Source of the DNA: a phage
Direction: 5' to 3' (one strand)
Length of the DNA stretch: 64,000 bases
Sequence record: PZ452611.1
A program made the translations under genes and the position numbers. Shown one piece after another: positions 16,060-61,920 of the stretch. Each line of letters opens with the position of its first letter. The first letter of the stretch is position 1. The notes under the pieces were generated by a model that saw only the letters and a list, made by a program, of their open reading frames with translations, was not told where the DNA came from and searched no databases.

Positions 16060-16395
16060 ACAATAAGGCAACTATGCAAACGAATGGCATGGCGCGACGG
16101 AGTCGCGACATAATATAAAAGCAGTAACCATCACCCCCGTGATAGTTTGTCTGCAAACTATTAATCAGATCATAGTTGCCTTGTATTTAGTTAATCATGA
16201 CATAAACTCAGGCATAGCCTTCGTCTCGAGGATGTTAACAAGCAAGGCAACTATAGATCTTCTAATAGTTGCCCTGCTTTTATATTATGTCATAGAAACA
16301 CCCGAAGGGGTGACCAAAGGTCACCTGGCATAGCCAGTGAAATATTGTAAACAAGTTAATTATTATCATGCAAACGAATGGCATGGCTTATCATC
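16060..16395. repeat. repeat cluster: TGCAAACGAATGGCATGGC x2 and GGCAACTAT/ATAGTTGCC x4 in alternating orientation
   Basis: read directly; no coding support. Confidence 0.55.
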
Positions 16396-16560
16396 TCTGT
16401 GTAAATAGTTTGTTTGTAAACAGTTTATACGTGAACAGTTAGCTGTGTAAACTATCAGGCATGTAAGCTATTGAGCATGTAAACAGTAAAGGTCGTGAAC
16501 AGTAAGCGAGCGAATAGTAATGGCGTGAACAATGACAGCGTAAACAGTCAGGCATGTCAA
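16395..16560. repeat. iteron-like array, about 9 copies of GTRAAYAGT at 12-17 bp spacing
   Basis: GTAAATAGT, GTAAACAGT, GTGAACAGT, GTAAACTAT, GTAAACAGT, GTGAACAGT, GCGAATAGT, GTGAACAAT, GTAAACAGT. Confidence 0.6.
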
Positions 16561-18016
16561 TTATGTTCAGTGTGTCACCATTATGTCATATTGTGTCAGA
16601 CAAGTTTTTCTCCTCTTTGTCAAGTGCTGCATGAAAAATTTACAATCTGGTATGGTAGCATTTTTGCGGCCCTGTTTACATTCAGTACTGTATGTATAAG
16701 CCTTGTTGTGTGGGCGCTTAGACGTCTAGACGGTTGGAAGTCTGCAGGTCAATATCTAATCTATTGGTTGCTAACTATATCCCACACAAATAGTAAGAAA
16801 TGCAATTGTTATATGCGTAAACTGTAACTCATGTTATCAATCCCTGTATGGATCGCCAGTGGTGCGCATAATAGGTATTATGTTAAATTGCCAGTAATGA
16901 TAACTATTCTCACAGTGATAGGTATTCTCATTCAACCCCACAAGATAGGTTGCAAATGTTGTGCCACTGTGTGAACGGCCTCGCCTATTAATTTGCCTCA
17001 CTGCCTCGATATTTGAGAATTATTATAAGAATGAGAAGTATTCCCATTTCGTCCGCCTGGCAGCACTCCTGTAGGTCAGGTCAAAATCGGGAGAGAACTG
17101 GACCTGTTCAGATATTTCTGGCTGGCTCTTCAGGTCTGTGTGGGAAAAGCCGACCCCTCCGGCGGCGGGGAGGGGGTCAATTAAAAAATTTACGGGGCAT
17201 ATGAAGCGCTCTTCAGGTAAGGCATGTATTATGGGATGAAACCCTCTTCAGGAAATGATATTTGTGGGTGTGATATTTGCTGGAAAGCTAGATATGACTG
17301 GACTCCTGGCGGGGCAGGGGTAGTACAGACAGGGGAAATATGGGGGATGTAGTTGGGTAAATTGATCAGGCAGGTAGAGTATGGAATATGTTACGAGTAT
17401 GTTAAATATGGAGGGTGAATATCTGCAGGATTTGTGTGTAAAATCAAAGACTTAAGTGGTGTTGTGGTATTTTCTATAAATAATTCAAGTTTAATAGGTG
17501 ATATTTGTCCCTATCCACTTTGTGTGGTAAACAGATTCAGATGAGATTGGTTTACGAGTGTATACATAATATACAAATTAAAGATACAAGAAACCCCCCT
17601 CCCCCTTCGGCTACCATTCACCTTTTCCTCTGACTGGTACTTAAACACTTATTCAGACTCTTCAGGTTATCACCCATATATCATATGGCAGTGACTGGTG
17701 TCCTCCGGCCCCTCTTTCGTCACCCGTCCGCTTCGCCATGCTAATGCCATAGCCAATGGTTCGGTTGTTCACCCTGTTCACTCAGGTGTATCTCCATACC
17801 CCTTCAAACCGAAGAGAACAGAAAACCCGAATTACTCGGTAAAAGAAAAGAGAAGAACTTAATTTTATCAGGATAAGCAAGAATGTCAAGGCATGACTGC
17901 TCACTAAACAAGCAAACAGTCATGTGTGGGAGGTAAGTGATTGTGGTGGTAGGAAATTTAGTTGAAAGATGTGTTATAGGTGCTCCCAGCACTTTAGCCG
18001 GGTAGCTAATTGTGTG

Positions 18017-18352: not shown

Positions 18353-18658
18353 TCATAGTCTACCACCCCTGAACTCTTCGTGCTCAGGCATAATAGAGAA
18401 CCAGATATCTACGATGTCCTCCCACGTCAGGTCATCAGCCTCAGGATCTATCTGGAGCGAAGATGGAGAATCTTCAGAATCGAAGTTTTCCTCTTTCGCT
18501 GGCTCAGCCAAGGGACATATAGTCACTCCTTTGGATGTCTCTTCAGATGCATGTGTGTTTATCATGTTCCACCCGTGAGTATTCCTGCAACAGCTGCTAT
18601 GGACGTAATGATCATCAGGATCACCACCAAAACTTCGGACAATGTTTTCATTGTGCAC
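18353..18658 (-). CDS. acidic hypothetical protein
   Basis: 101 aa ORF. Confidence 0.45.
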   Translation of the reverse strand: MHNENIVRSFGGDPDDHYVHSSCCRNTHGWNMINTHASEETSKGVTICPLAEPAKEENFDSEDSPSSLQIDPEADDLTWEDIVDIWFSIMPEHEEFRGGRL

Positions 18659-56369: not shown

Positions 56370-56720
56370 ATGAAAGATGGGGATAAGCTGCTATATCTTA
56401 AAGTCCCCCTTGAAATACTATCTATGTCAAAAGTTTTGAATGACACAACTGGGGAGGTTGTTGTTCTTGACTTGTATGACAAGATCGTATACTGCTACCT
56501 GCACAACTGGTATAAGCTTGGAGGAAATTCACGCTTCACACCAAGCACAAGGAAAATTGCAGCAGATGTTGGGATAAAGAAAACAAAAGCAGCAGCGTGC
56601 GTTAAAACTTTAGAATGTGCAGGAGTGGTTGAAACATCCACACAAGGGAGAGGTAAAAGATGCACATTTTCCAAAGTTTTGCCACCAGAAAAAGTTATTC
56701 GAATGTCAACAACTGGTTAG
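56370..56720 (+). CDS. putative HTH DNA-binding protein
   Basis: helix-turn-helix-like STRKIAADVGIKKTKAAACVKTLECAGVV; directly upstream of 21-bp repeat array. Confidence 0.4.
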   Translation: MKDGDKLLYLKVPLEILSMSKVLNDTTGEVVVLDLYDKIVYCYLHNWYKLGGNSRFTPSTRKIAADVGIKKTKAAACVKTLECAGVVETSTQGRGKRCTFSKVLPPEKVIRMSTTG

Positions 56721-56794
56721 ACCAGTAAAAACTTAAATATCTGTACTATAAGGATTCGTATGTTTTATGTTCGCTCTGGAACAGAGGTTAGTAA

Positions 56795-56876
56795 CTGTCC
56801 GTGATACGGACACTACTGTCCGTCACGCGGACACATCTGCCCGTAATACGGACACTAACTGTCCGTGATACGGACA
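56795..56876. repeat. four tandem 21-bp repeats with palindromic core CTGTCCGTGATACGGACAC
   Basis: copies at 56795, 56816, 56837, 56858; GTCCGT/ACGGAC inverted repeat in each. Confidence 0.75.
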
Positions 56877-57363
56877 CATAAAGAATATAACTAAAATAAC
56901 TAAATAATAAAAAATAAAAGATCTAGTACTTATGGTACTAAAGTACATATACTTAACTTATGTAGAATATACTAGATCCTAAGTACCATGTTTTAAATTT
57001 ATTACTTACCATAGGTAGTGTCGGCCCTTCATTGGCACTCGCCTACGAGGGGCGAGATGCCGGGCCTCCGTAGTGCACACATGCAGGTCTGTTAACATGT
57101 GTGGGAGCGAAGCGATAGCGCAGGCCAAAGGCCGAGCACTAATGTGGACCACCGACGAAAGCTTGCCAGCGCCGTAAGGAGTCGGTTGAGAGCCTCCCGC
57201 GCGAGTTTGGATAAAGTTTATGTGTGGAAACGGACAATGAGGCCCCTAAATCGCTCCACAGCCATATAAACTATACCAAGTAAGGCAATCGCACCAGTTT
57301 GATAGAAAAGCTCGTTACAAAGCGATACAGTGAGTTTTTCTATAACTTGAAGAGGAGGCAGCT

Positions 57364-57942
57364 ATGAGTCCACGCAAAGATGACCGTGAAAAGATTGCAA
57401 AACGTTATCAGAATGAAGAACAGATGGAGAAAACTTTCAAGTGGAAGCCAGGTTTCCAGCGTAATCATTCTAACGCTCGTGATCGTAAGCATCCGGATAA
57501 GTGGTTAACACCGCCAAATGATGGCATGCAGGTTGGTGATGAGAAGGAGCTGTCACCTGGAAAAGATGGCAACTACATTCGCACTAAGGACGCTGGTCCA
57601 AAGGATGACAGCTATCTTGTAGATAAGGTTCTTGATGGTATCAATGTAGATGTTGACACTGCACGAAACCTTTTTCTTGGGTGGTATCGCACAGGTTTTT
57701 TCGACATCAAGGCTATTCGTCGTGTTTGTGATATTAAAAAGTCTGCATATGATGACGACTCGTTACATCGCACCCTGAGACAATATTCAGAAAGATATGG
57801 TCATCCGGTTATCACTCTTGACGATGTTAACGAAGTGATGTATCATGCAGAGGTTGTTGCAGGAAGATTTGGTGATGCATATCTTGATATCCTTTCTGCA
57901 AAGGATGAGGTAATGTTAAATAAGATTTACTATGAACGCTGA
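57364..57942 (+). CDS. hypothetical protein
   Basis: 192 aa, GAGGAGG RBS. Confidence 0.5.
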   Translation: MSPRKDDREKIAKRYQNEEQMEKTFKWKPGFQRNHSNARDRKHPDKWLTPPNDGMQVGDEKELSPGKDGNYIRTKDAGPKDDSYLVDKVLDGINVDVDTARNLFLGWYRTGFFDIKAIRRVCDIKKSAYDDDSLHRTLRQYSERYGHPVITLDDVNEVMYHAEVVAGRFGDAYLDILSAKDEVMLNKIYYER

Positions 57943-58460: not shown

Positions 58461-58747
58461 GGTTGTTTTCGTGTATCATGATGAATATCCAATTTAAAGA
58501 TGAATTTGATGGCTTTATCTCCGGATGCTTTGAAACAGGGTTCGGAGAAGGCTGAGTTCCCCTTAGAGGGCTTGATAGTGCACCACACTTAAAATGGTAG
58601 GGGCAGCCAGCACATGACGATGTGACCCCAGCCAACCTGTAATAAGGTCGAGCCAAAGTGCGGTAATGGGCTCTGGTAACCCACTTGTTGGGTCTTGCTG
58701 GTCCAGGACGCTGGACAAGTCGCAGGGAATACCACCCTGCGGCGAAC

Positions 58748-58776
58748 TTGACAATCAGTATTTGCTATGATAAAAT
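58748..58776 (+). promoter_or_regulatory. sigma70-like promoter TTGACA-N17-TAAAAT
   Basis: upstream of gene 58805 with RBS GGAGGAAAC. Confidence 0.5.
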
Positions 58777-58804
58777 CCACCTATCACGTGATAATGGAGG
58801 AAAC

Positions 58805-59143
58805 ATGGCGGATACAACTAAAAAGCGTCGCCGTAGAGGCAGACCTCTGAAAGAGGAGTCCAACGCCATTCAGCTAGAGAAGAACATCCTTGATATGAAG
58901 GAATCTTTTATAGCGATGGTTCCAGAAGCTCACAAAGTTTTAAGAGAGCTGATGTTGGACCCGAAAACCAAACAAAATATTCGTCAAAGCATTGCAGAGT
59001 ATGTTCTTGATAAGGCAGACCGAATGCAGGAAGAATATGATGAGATGTTTGGTGAAGAGGAAGAGGTGGTAGTGGAAGAGGCTGAAAAACCAGCACCTTT
59101 TATGCCATTTACTACAGAAATACAGCCTGTTAGCAATAGCTAA
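58805..59143 (+). CDS. hypothetical protein with Lys/Arg-rich N-terminus
   Basis: start at MADTTKKRRRRGRP (track 58685). Confidence 0.5.
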   Translation: MADTTKKRRRRGRPLKEESNAIQLEKNILDMKESFIAMVPEAHKVLRELMLDPKTKQNIRQSIAEYVLDKADRMQEEYDEMFGEEEEVVVEEAEKPAPFMPFTTEIQPVSNS

Positions 59144-59239: not shown

Positions 59240-59314
59240 GCCCTGTTAGCTTAGTGGATAAAGCAGCGGCCTTCTAAGCCGTTGACACTGGTTCGAGTCC
59301 AGTACGGGGTGCCA
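59240..59314 (+). tRNA. tRNA-Arg (anticodon TCT)
   Basis: hand-folded cloverleaf: 7 bp acceptor with two G-U pairs, anticodon loop CTTCTAA, T-loop TTCGAGT, CCA encoded. Confidence 0.75.
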
Positions 59315-59318
59315 AATT

Positions 59319-59405
59319 GGGGAGTTATCCCGTAGAGGTAGCGGTGTAGACTGTAAATCTATTGTCATTGCGACTCGGGTGGTTCGACTCCACCACTCCC
59401 CACCA
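59319..59405 (+). tRNA. tRNA-Tyr (anticodon GTA)
   Basis: perfect 7 bp acceptor GGGGAGT/ACTCCCC, loop CTGTAAA, long variable arm, T-loop TTCGACT, CCA. Confidence 0.8.
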
Positions 59406-59519
59406 AATTTATATTTTTAGATGCATAAATAATACAGATAATGGCATTGATATTTATCGTCGTTTATACTAGTCACTAACTGCTCGAAAATCAGTGTCAT
59501 TATCAGTATAATTTATAAA

Positions 59520-59610
59520 GGAGGGTAGGGAGCAATGGTGCTCAAGCGGTCTTGAAAACCGTCCCGTTGAGGATGACTCGATGATGGTTCGATTCCATTA
59601 CTCTCCGCCA
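59520..59610 (+). tRNA. tRNA-Ser (anticodon TGA)
   Basis: acceptor GGAGGGT/ACTCTCC, loop CTTGAAA, long variable arm, T-loop TTCGATT, CCA. Confidence 0.75.
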
Positions 59611-59708
59611 CATTGTTGACCTTGTAATTAAGCGAAAGCCGGAAGCAGAACCGGATTATCAAATGTTACAGTCGTCATCGCCGACTAGCAACATGGTCAA
59701 CATACTGA

Positions 59709-59805
59709 GCTAGGTAAGCCCTTTGGCAAGGGCGAGGATTTTTAATCCTGAAAATAGACGAGGTAGTCGTTGAATACATAGGTGGTTCGATTCCATCACC
59801 TAGCA
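59709..59805 (+). tRNA. aberrant tRNA-like element (possible tRNA-Lys TTT-like with about 30 nt extra arm)
   Basis: perfect acceptor GCTAGGT/ACCTAGC, canonical D-arm and T-arm (GGTGGTTCGATTCCATC), anticodon-like loop TTTTTAA, but 30 nt insertion between anticodon and T arms. Confidence 0.35.
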
Positions 59806-59812
59806 CCTTTTT

Positions 59813-59888
59813 GCTGATGTAGCACAATCGGTAGTGCAATTGATTTGTAATCAATAGGTTGTAGGTTCAAGTCCTGCCATCAGCACCA
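59813..59888 (+). tRNA. tRNA-Thr (anticodon TGT)
   Basis: acceptor GCTGATG/CATCAGC, loop TTTGTAA, T-loop TTCAAGT, CCA. Confidence 0.8.
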
Positions 59889-59889
59889 A

Positions 59890-59964
59890 GGCCCTGTAGC
59901 TGGAAGGTTCAAGCAAGCGACTCATAATCGCCAGACGGTGGTTCAATTCCACCCAGGGCCACCA
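59890..59964 (+). tRNA. tRNA-Met (anticodon CAT; Ile-lysidine type not excluded)
   Basis: acceptor GGCCCTG/CAGGGCC, loop CTCATAA, T-loop TTCAATT, CCA. Confidence 0.75.
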
Positions 59965-59975
59965 AATAGTAAATA

Positions 59976-60052
59976 CTCCGCGTAGCTCAGCTTGGTAGAG
60001 CGCCTGATTTGGGATCAGGAGGTCGAGTGTTCGAATCACTCCGTGGAGACCA
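59976..60052 (+). tRNA. tRNA-Pro (anticodon TGG)
   Basis: C1-G72 acceptor, D-arm GCTCAGCTTGGTAGAGC, loop TTTGGGA, T-loop TTCGAAT, CCA. Confidence 0.8.
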
Positions 60053-61156: not shown

Positions 61157-61584
61157 TGTCTAAGATTTACGGACCGTGTTCTGAAAAGCAGAAGATGATC
61201 CTCGAAAACGATGCAGATATCTTGGTAATCGGCGGTGCAGCAGGGTCTGGCAAGTCGTTCCTCTTGCAGTTGATGCCACTTAAAATTATTGATGACCCCC
61301 ACAGCTCTGTGGTTATGTTCCGAAGAACAACCCCACAGTTGGAAGGTGAGGGTGGGCTATGGCCTAAAGCAGTAGCTATTTATAGTGATCTGCCTGAAAA
61401 CATTAAGCCAAAGTTTAGAGAGAAGGATCATAAGTTCATTTTTCCACGGTTTGATCCGAACACTGGCAAGTGGGATAGAAGCAAAAAGGGAGCTGTTGTA
61501 AAATACTGCCACATGGAGTATGTACAAGATAAGCTTAACCATCAGGGGCTTGAGTACACCATGGTTTGCTTCGATGAGGGTTAA
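61156..61584 (+). CDS. terminase large subunit, exon 1 (ATPase N-terminus)
   Basis: Walker A GGAAGSGKS, Walker B-like CFDE; frame closes at TAA inside putative intron. Confidence 0.6.
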   Translation: MSKIYGPCSEKQKMILENDADILVIGGAAGSGKSFLLQLMPLKIIDDPHSSVVMFRRTTPQLEGEGGLWPKAVAIYSDLPENIKPKFREKDHKFIFPRFDPNTGKWDRSKKGAVVKYCHMEYVQDKLNHQGLEYTMVCFDEG

Positions 61585-61587
61585 TTT

Positions 61588-61920
61588 GTAGCTCTCGTAA
61601 AACCTCCCTAATTGCGGGGAAATCTTTATTATTGACACCACCAACCTGTTATGGTAACATAATAGAGGCTTCGAAGAGAGATCGAAGGTATGGTAACAGT
61701 GTGTTAATTTAGATAATCCGCAGCGAAGCATCCGAGAGGATGAACGTTCAACGACTAGTCGAAAGACGTAGAATCAAGCGATTCGAAACGGGAGGGTAAG
61801 CGATTGTTGTCGCTTATAAGATATAGTCTGGTCTGCATGGAGACATGCAGCTGCCTGAGAATGGCGGGGCAAGACTAGCGACCTTGCCTGAACATAAACG
61901 ACACAATTCGAATGGGAGCA
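61588..61920 (+). mobile_element. group-I-like intron 1 (no ORF), boundaries approximate
   Basis: ORF-free insert between terminase frames; shares AATTGCGGGGAAATC and ATAGTCTGGTCTGCATGGAGACATGCAGC blocks with second insert. Confidence 0.5.

Follow-up and report, generated by a model that had tools for sequence, protein, structure and literature searches.

A conserved structured non-coding element beside a putative lambda-type origin of phage rV5 shares its core with satellite-like Escherichia coli plasmids

The G-site or G4-type single-strand initiation (ssi) signals of R1, R100 and G4 are hairpin-rich, folded single-strand signals that lie a few hundred bases from an initiator-dependent origin; they are independent of initiator specificity, are common to phage and plasmid-like replicons, and consist of single-stranded DNA (ssDNA) read by the host DnaG. 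At the origin of ColE1 a transcript, RNA II, has a folding conserved by covariation, with an antisense RNA I and with neither an initiator nor iterons. A transcript also runs through or next to the origin at the T7 primary origin, at the T4 oriF/oriG R-loops and in the activation of ori lambda; in T7 and T4 a promoter is followed by a region rich in adenine and thymine (AT) with no conserved structured RNA, and in ori lambda the initiator gene lies upstream of its own iterons. In P4, with its cos from P2, and in the pac/cos mimicry of phage-inducible chromosomal islands (PICIs), the nucleotide similarity of helper and satellite lies mainly in a short helper-specific non-coding sequence, a double-stranded DNA site for terminase. 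The T4 gene 32 leader holds a pseudoknot-capable RNA with invariant single-stranded residues upstream of an early gene of a lytic myovirus, and the packaging RNA (pRNA) of phi29 is a phage structured RNA of 120-170 nucleotides (nt) that is part of a DNA-handling machine and not a regulator. Here we describe an island rich in guanine and cytosine (GC) in a 64,000-nt stretch of DNA (the window) that belongs, in reverse complement, to Escherichia phage rV5 (NC_011041, Vequintavirus), window positions 56700-57400 being rV5 65328-64628 with 100% identity. The island is a conserved, single-copy non-coding element of about 270 nt that folds on the + strand. Comparison of sequences suggests that it may be an origin-linked RNA handle for a Vequintavirus factor, copied by satellites; we put this forward tentatively, as the leading possibility.

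The rV5 element resembles the G4-type ssi signals in being hairpin-rich, in lying beside a predicted origin, in its presumed independence of initiator specificity and in being common to phage and plasmid-like replicons; however, its RNA-type loops and G.U-rich helices favour RNA, it has no sequence similarity to those signals, and the enzyme concerned would be a phage T7-type primase-helicase. With ColE1 RNA II it has in common a folding conserved by covariation, and with the T7, T4 and lambda origins a putative transcript through the origin region; like ori lambda it has an initiator-like gene upstream of repeats, and in contrast to ColE1, T7 and T4 it combines such repeats with a conserved fold. 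As in P4 and the PICIs, a short helper-specific sequence is the main nucleotide similarity to the presumed satellites, but here it behaves as a folded single strand and sits beside iterons. The element is far larger than the gene 32 leader, is distant from the start codon and occurs also in elements without the downstream gene. It differs from phi29 pRNA in architecture and phage type, matches no Rfam pRNA model and has no link to a portal.

Structure and conservation of the island

An initial annotation had marked a GC-rich island without a plausible open reading frame (ORF) and with many complementary segments. GC content is 0.585 at 57000-57199 and 0.535 at 57100-57299, compared with 0.335-0.385 immediately upstream and about 0.41-0.43 downstream, and the island does sit between four repeats of 21-22 base pairs (bp) and a gene led by a ribosome-binding site (RBS) at 57364. 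The complementary segments that had been quoted are present and are paired in the fold of the 5' domain. The structured, conserved part spans about 57016-57285, and a further conserved segment with a hairpin and the RBS reaches 57363 (Table 1). The element is a real structured non-coding feature without a known family. The proposal of a candidate structured RNA is backed by covariation, strand-specific G.U changes, purifying selection and the lack of a coding signal: comparison with relatives showed the element to be conserved and its stems to carry compensated changes, and neither poor conservation nor protein coding in homologues was found.

The 5' domain (126 nt) folds at -58.5 kcal/mol, its minimum-free-energy structure equals the centroid, and its z-score is -3.9, with 0 of 200 dinucleotide shuffles as good; for the whole 374 nt the z-score is only -2.1. 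Hairpin A shows only two stem differences between the phages and a satellite-like plasmid (L009), both compensated (G-C to U-A twice), and the terminal pair of P1 is U-A, U.G or C-G. An 18-nt hairpin arm is missing in rV5 and Pr121LW and is carried by 16 of 17 other aligned relatives, with a divergent form present in an IMG/VR phage.

Further double changes fall in stem S1 of the core, which reads ACCGAC/GUCGGU in the phages and GCUGCC/GGCAGC in the satellite-like plasmids (three double substitutions). A fourth double change, C-G to U-A, is found in L123, a Logan contig that is, together with the IMG/VR contig L016, one of the two most divergent phages bearing the element; G.U intermediates were seen, and four of the seven pairs change on both sides. 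In S1, 97% of cells are paired, compared with 32-60% when the partners are slid. Within the 24-nt core loop only the second base of a GNRA-like GUAA/GGAA varies. A covariance model built from the core detects a single copy in the window and a single copy per relative, at 91-103 bits. A pseudoknot is possible between GGA (57178-80) and UCC (57195-97) and between GCG (57169-71) and CGC (57198-200); changes there in L016 and EI-SP-GF give G.U, and the evidence for this pairing is suggestive, not proven. RNAalifold, applied to the phage clade, paired AGCUUGC with GCGAGUU in place of S1. This was rejected as the main fold because the satellites lose that pairing but keep S1 through three double changes; parts of it (GGA/UCC, GCG/CGC) are retained as the possible pseudoknot.

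One-sided changes in P1, S1, S2 and inner E1 all yield G.U, and the opposite strand would have C.A mismatches; therefore, it is the + strand that folds, in the sense direction of the flanking genes. The GNRA loop of the core (GUAA or GGAA) is an RNA-type loop. In the 3' domain, the inner changes of helix E1 are all of the U-A to U.G or G.U to G-C type, on one strand, with the caveat that E1 is not clearly conserved in L123 or L016; an outer extension (57209-57215 / 57272-57277), with A.C cells, was dropped. L123 and the satellites also have the motif CCYCUAAAU with a hairpin after it. The last segment of the island is 90-100% identical even in L016 and L123, has a fold z-score of -1.2, is not found in the satellites, and is probably a local control region for gp073.

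Selection was assessed by comparing rV5 with L016 and L123. Identity is 68% at third-codon positions of gp073, 91% in the core and 90-93% in the segment ahead of the gp073 start codon; for the 5' domain the value is about 92% when recalculated without the 18-nt indel and 80-81% with the indel counted as gaps, and the 3' domain, at 71-73% in the distant phages, evolves at about the neutral rate. The element is under purifying selection. It is present in 119 of 119 Vequintavirus records with 90-100% identity, and also in the divergent 137-kilobase (kb) phage lineage of L016 and L123, in which the initiator module has been exchanged, both gene and iterons, and homology to rV5 restarts at the 5' edge of the element. 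Pattern scans (three of IMG/VR, one of GTDB with one genome per species, and one of JGI/ENA metagenomes) gave no fourth clade; only Vequintavirus, the L016/L123 lineage and the satellites are real, the other matches being chance matches in GC-rich genomes. A search of 50,697 phage records at E<=10 returned only trivial 25-32-nt matches outside Vequintavirus, and the syntenic slot in Seunavirus 4MG and in a Klebsiella relative is gene-dense and holds no element.

The statement that the island has no plausible ORF needs a correction that leaves its substance in place: a 56-codon ORF starting with GTG (ORF78, rv5_gp074) exists and is annotated, and it is without a coding signature. It is extremely improbable that the element encodes the 56-residue gp074 or another small protein. 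The ORF is open in 16 of the 19 distinct phage versions used for the coding tests, and the rV5 record and a few others annotate it; however, its frame has 8 synonymous against 30 non-synonymous distinct substitutions, the changes per codon position are 13:16:9, with the third position lowest, and neither alternative frame does better. The frame is broken in three phages, by a -1/+1 frameshift pair with internal stops in Alma, a -1 shift in Ph206 and an in-frame stop in the IMG/VR phage. The GTG start has no Shine-Dalgarno sequence, no family in Pfam or PHROG is matched, most Vequintavirus records have no gene call at the site, and the compensatory stem changes in the satellites would alter amino acids. 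The small-protein reading is effectively excluded, and gp074/ORF78 should be dropped as a protein-coding gene.

Known RNA families were searched with the 4227 covariance models of Rfam 15, at the gathering threshold and at E<=10. The family search that the initial annotation had proposed matched no family: at the gathering threshold the island has no match, and at E<=10 the one overlap with the island is 44 nt at its 5' edge, by a match to rli43 that scores 24 bits where the gathering score is 100; no other match overlaps 57016-57300. On the whole satellite L017, at E<=1, there were only two chance matches elsewhere. A degenerate intron, which had also been suggested, does not fit: searches of 56700-57500 with the group I and group II models gave no match at E<=10 (a group I intron, RF00028, scores 84.9 bits at 61572-61850 of the same window), and no gene is interrupted, since gp075 ends at its stop codon (56720) and gp073 is led by an RBS and an ATG of its own. 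ARAGORN gives seven tRNA genes at 59240-60052 and no tRNA or transfer-messenger RNA in the island. Domain IV of bacterial 4.5S RNA, the signal recognition particle (SRP) RNA, is a helix capped by GGAA with a conserved symmetric loop and carries CCGGAAGGAAGCAGC, to which CCGGAAGGAGGCAGC of the satellite core was likened by eye. The likeness was rejected: the GGCAGC part of this is stem S1, which reads GUCGGU in the phages, and there is no match to an SRP model.

Table 1. Positions of the element, its parts and neighbouring features (window coordinates unless another sequence is named)
Feature	Position	Strand	Description
5' domain	57016..57141	+	Stem P1 (57016-57026 / 57130-57141) enclosing hairpin A (57034-57061), hairpin B (57076-57103) and small hairpins
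Conserved core, 65 nt	57139..57206	+	AAUGUGGACC; S1 (57150-57156 / 57181-57188); 24-nt loop GAAAGCUUGCCAGCGCCG(U/G)AAGGA; GAGAGYCUCCCGCGCG
3' domain, fast-evolving	57207..57285	+	Helix E1 (57216-57224 / 57263-57271) around motif GCCCCUAAAU (57242-57251), with a small variable hairpin
Conserved segment	57286..57363	+	12-bp A/U-rich hairpin (57303-57314 / 57331-57342), then the gp073 RBS (AAGAGGAGG)
ORF78 / rv5_gp074	57099..57269	+	GenBank annotation; judged spurious
gp075	56370..56720	+	116-residue winged-helix protein; putative initiator or regulator that would bind the repeats 3' of its own gene
Four repeats of 21-22 bp (TAACTGTCCGTGATACGGACAC)	56792..56877		From a repeat search; each internally palindromic; putative lambda-type iterons or operators
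AT-rich spacer	56878..57015		GC about 0.3; long inverted repeat with two GATC sites; putative DNA-unwinding region
gp073	57364..57942	+	192-residue protein of unknown function; directly 3' of the element, with its own RBS and ATG
Double hairpin GGTGACCAAAGGTCACCTGGCATAGCCAG	16292-16342; 18490-18547; L009 10886-10934; L017 8549-8597; L018 10647-10697

The core in satellite-like plasmids of E. coli

The core recurs, with 83-87% identity and in one copy each, in E. coli 'plasmids' that are small, circular and 13.2-13.7 kb long (NZ_CP020521.1, labelled L009, as well as NZ_CP178698.1, NZ_CP035869.1 and CP148565.1); it is also found in a 39.6-kb plasmid trimer (NZ_CP043822.1) and in two metagenome contigs. 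The satellite-like set as a whole is labelled L009, L017, L018, L019, L010 (the trimer), L090 and L097; the plasmids include unnamed4 of E. coli 190 and pE275a_13 of E275a. The plasmids encode a major capsid protein, a tape measure, baseplate or tail-fibre-like and neck proteins, an O-like initiator and small helix-turn-helix (HTH) proteins, and several of their proteins match no family. Among their gene calls there is no polymerase, primase, portal, terminase or integrase; the lack of a called polymerase, primase, portal or terminase gene means that the plasmids are probably satellites.

The non-coding stretch that holds the core is 2.2-2.9 kb long across the satellites. When the 2.4-kb non-coding region of one satellite was compared with the 50,697 phage records, only the 65-nt core matched, and the records matching the core region are all Vequintavirus save one unlisted Lactococcus record. 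The cores of the satellites examined are near-identical, being the same from GUGGACC through CCCGCGC, though the iterons and hairpin modules differ. The extra hairpin modules, which vary in number and are joined by UGUGUGGG linkers, have c(UUCG)g and c(UACG)g loops on covarying stems (UUAGCC/GGCUAA, UUAGCU/AGCUAA, UUAACU/AGUUAA), and these loops and stems favour RNA over DNA. Terminator-like matches found on the minus strand of a satellite were discounted because the G.U pattern fits the + strand only. The octamer TGTGTGGG also joins hairpin modules in the island and in the satellites, and the satellites carry CCTCTTCAGGC as well. A double hairpin of about 50 nt that contains GGTGACCAAAGGTCACCTGGCATAGCCAG is common to rV5 and the satellites (84-90% identity) and lies at varying positions in the latter.

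The element follows iterons in every one of the three clades, 100-800 nt downstream and in the same orientation. The iterons themselves are unrelated between clades: TAACTGTCCGTGATACGGACAC in rV5, TCTGATACATATTTGCATCAGAT in L123, and ACCTGTAAAATATTTTTAC and others in the satellites.

Copying a helper's packaging site is a classic satellite strategy, as with P4 and the cos of P2, and the element could likewise be a packaging site (pac) copied by the satellites for packaging by the helper terminase. The satellites are without a called terminase gene, the core is the main DNA that helper and satellite have in common, and an intron-containing gene 4.3 kb downstream in rV5 (intron 61572-61850) is a candidate TerL ORF; the rV5 genome paper places introns in the large terminase gene (PMC3606486), and the group I intron in the window is probably one of these. 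This explanation is nevertheless very unlikely: a double-stranded pac needs neither compensatory changes nor a strand-specific tolerance of G.U, the element is neither inside nor beside a recognisable small-terminase gene, and an 86-residue HTH protein of the satellites, with its partner, could be their own small terminase.

Neighbouring genes and other features of the window

The element lies in a rightward transcription unit that holds genes 27-81 in the rV5 genome paper (PMC3606486). The features come in this order: an RNA ligase 1 gene on the opposite strand, a kinase-like ATPase, a phosphoesterase, gp075, the repeats, the AT-rich stretch and the GC-rich island, followed by gp073, three small genes, a second GC-rich island and seven tRNA genes. 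The protein gp075 matches PHROG 12838, 'replication initiation protein', with E = 1e-79, and other initiator families more weakly; in Pfam, HTH_36 and DUF6945 fall slightly below threshold, and its sequence matches in the PDB are winged helix-turn-helix (wHTH) proteins, with RepA_N no better than E about 0.8. It consists of a DNA-binding domain only and is also similar to the wHTH domains of repressors. The repeats are annotated as a 21-bp tandem repeat in the record of phage Alma, and one unit fewer is found in V18 and in typing phage 4. The AT-rich spacer is nearly invariant across Vequintavirus. Between 56370 and 57015, both the dyad-symmetric repeat array and the adjoining AT-rich region expected of a lambda-type origin are present. 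The genome paper reports a T7 gp4-like primase-helicase (gp230) and a family-A polymerase in rV5 and leaves the origin undefined, skew having failed to place it (PMC3606486); apart from this 2013 paper, literature searches yielded nothing about the element, satellites of Vequintavirus or the origin of rV5.

Within the phage collection, gp073 and gp075 are confined to Vequintavirus, and the linkage of gp073 to the element is kept in the divergent phages L016 and L123. The AlphaFold 2 model of gp073 is poor (predicted local distance difference test score, pLDDT, 52), and searches of the PDB, Pfam and PHROG were uninformative, with no recognisable RNA-binding domain. The initial annotation had offered a long structured leader of the gene at 57364 as one reading; a leader may be part of the picture, but it is insufficient alone, as the core recurs upstream of unrelated genes in the satellite-like plasmids. 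The constant association with gp073 that would mark a leader or riboswitch was not found: in the satellites the core precedes unrelated genes, with promoters between, and a gp073 homologue (50% identity) follows a 60-nt intergenic gap without any such element. A related explanation is that the core is an RNA operator by which a nearby phage RNA-binding protein, gp073 or another early product, autoregulates its translation, after the model of the T4 gene 32 leader pseudoknot, and that the satellites mimic it and thereby sense helper infection or titrate the helper protein. The element and gp073 do stay together in L016 and L123 while initiator and iterons are swapped, the segment before the gp073 start is 90-100% conserved with a hairpin beside the RBS, and an invariant loop on a covarying stem is what protein-binding operators have. 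Such an operator is unlikely, however, given that the core lies about 160 nt from the gp073 start with a near-neutral domain between, that the homologue just mentioned does without the element, that gp073 shows no recognisable RNA-binding domain (its model being unreliable), and that strong sigma-70-type promoters lie between the satellite core and the next gene.

Upstream of gp075 is a sigma-70-type promoter; from there to gp073 no + strand intrinsic terminator is predicted. The element could instead be a stable RNA acting in trans, away from the origin, as a sponge, decoy or anti-defence RNA that aids phage and satellite alike. Its neighbourhood is centred on RNA (RNA ligase 1, kinase-like ATPase, phosphoesterase, second island, seven tRNA genes), the satellites' hairpin modules with their UGUGUGGG linkers have a sponge-like layout, and the window has 13 copies of TGTGTGGG where 1.7 would be expected. 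We regard this as distinctly unlikely: no promoter or terminator brackets the element, the core has no antisense target above chance in the window and no similarity to the E. coli chromosome, and a role in trans would leave the constant position downstream of iterons unexplained.

Other features were noted in the window. A second GC-rich, ORF-free island (58470-58800), 440 nt upstream of the tRNA cluster and conserved in all Vequintavirus, has no Rfam match and is probably another small stable RNA; a 43-nt piece of it (58628-58670) matches unannotated DNA of more than 800 T-even-type phages with 90-95% identity, and in T2 this piece lies between ipIV and T2_126, which is the T4 slot of tRNA and stable-RNA genes. 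An ORF-poor stretch of about 1.9 kb (16100-18000), with about eight GT[GA]AACAGT repeats at 16400-16560, five CTCTTCAGG motifs and several copies of TGTGTGGG/CCCACACA, is probably the 'non-coding' box of the rV5 paper. Elsewhere some copies of TGTGTGGG take the form CCCACACA and stand, after a hairpin, immediately ahead of the RBS of + strand genes (e.g., 9641, 13922). At 59709-59807 ARAGORN calls a 99-nt 'tRNA-???' with a four-base anticodon (atcc), which Rfam scores as a tRNA at 35.5 bits and which has no annotation in the rV5 record; this tRNA may contain an intron or be of a frameshift-suppressor-like kind. ORF74 (58805-59143) encodes 112 residues beginning MADTTKKRRRRGRPLK, with an acidic tail, and belongs to PHROG 3330, of unknown function; by eye its N-terminus is like small-terminase or AT-hook DNA-binding proteins. 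Finally, 18 MG0656xx records of 'Campylobacter phage' (host C. jejuni) are essentially Vequintavirus, with 95-99% identity to rV5 here, and probably their host labels are wrong or the preparations were contaminated.

A possible role at the putative origin

The explanation that we tentatively favour links the element to the putative origin. The element would be made as RNA from the promoter upstream of gp075: it is sense-oriented in the gp075-gp073 unit, with that promoter upstream and no + strand terminator. The protein gp075 would bind the four palindromic repeats as iterons, the adjoining AT-rich stretch would open, and the folded core would then serve as a docking or priming handle for a factor encoded by Vequintavirus, most likely the T7-type primase-helicase and polymerase machinery of the phage. 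A handle that is read by a phage-encoded factor would be independent of which initiator and iterons are used; the satellites would keep their own O-like initiator and iterons, having copied the core to capture the same helper factor. The broader proposition, that an undescribed structured RNA is a handle for replication or another DNA transaction at a lambda-type origin and that an undescribed family of plasmid-like satellites of about 13 kb, with a capsid protein, a tape measure and an initiator of their own, parasitise the phage through RNA mimicry, is rather doubtful.

The same origin-linked role could be played by DNA, if the + strand, laid bare by unwinding of the AT-rich region, folded as ssDNA and acted as a single-strand initiation or primosome-type signal for the phage primase-helicase, after the model of the R1 G-site downstream of oriR or of the complementary-strand origin of G4. 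A T7 gp4-type 5'-3' helicase-primase leaving the AT-rich stretch would travel on the + strand; thus the strand that folds is also the predicted helicase track, and rV5 has a T7 gp4-like enzyme. The single-copy element adjoins iterons and an AT-rich stretch in all clades, its stems covary while its loops are invariant, and GCGAAGC, which is a very stable DNA mini-hairpin, occurs at 57106-57112. A folded DNA is nonetheless rather unlikely. The helices are rich in G.U (E1 of phage Aya has five wobbles in nine pairs) and G.T is weak in DNA, the c(UUCG)g and c(UACG)g loops of the satellites stabilise RNA and not DNA, nothing outside Vequintavirus in the 50,697 phage records is similar, G4-type origins included, and the orientation always follows the direction of transcription.

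It should be noted that several points count against an origin-linked RNA handle. The strong covariation comes from very few independent events (phage versus satellite, and L123), and within Vequintavirus alone covariation is no higher than in shuffle controls; the core by itself is thermodynamically ordinary (z = +0.65). In L123 alone, a G stands opposite a G at 57178/57197 and breaks one of the six pseudoknot pairs. The three GCG/CGC pairs of the pseudoknot never vary, which we list here although it carries no weight either way, because the model expects fixed residues where the core would contact the helper factor. With regard to the origin, the similarity of gp075 to initiators is weak beyond its own PHROG, and gp075 may be a repressor, in which case the repeats would be operators and not an origin. 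The distance from iterons to element is not constant (about 140 nt in rV5; in L009 as much as about 800 nt), the position near iterons could be just a clustering of non-coding features in compact genomes, and the linkage of element and gp073 through the swap of the initiator module fits a gp073 operator equally well. Lastly, that the plasmids are probably satellites of the Vequintavirus group is something we infer; the top matches of their tape measure in the 50,697 phage records are Vequintavirus, with only 25-26% identity, and their capsid protein has no Vequintavirus match.

If the origin-linked RNA handle is real, the interface between satellite and helper would be a shared folded RNA, and not a DNA site or a protein. 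Phages of the rV5 type are widely used for O157 typing and in therapy cocktails, and, if the element recruits helper machinery, it would provide the first handle on where and how these phages start replication. It would then also represent a conserved structured RNA family absent from Rfam and would reveal an unrecognised plasmid-borne satellite family of virulent coliphages, with its own capsid and tape measure; searches for both partners could use the 65-nt core as a simple marker.

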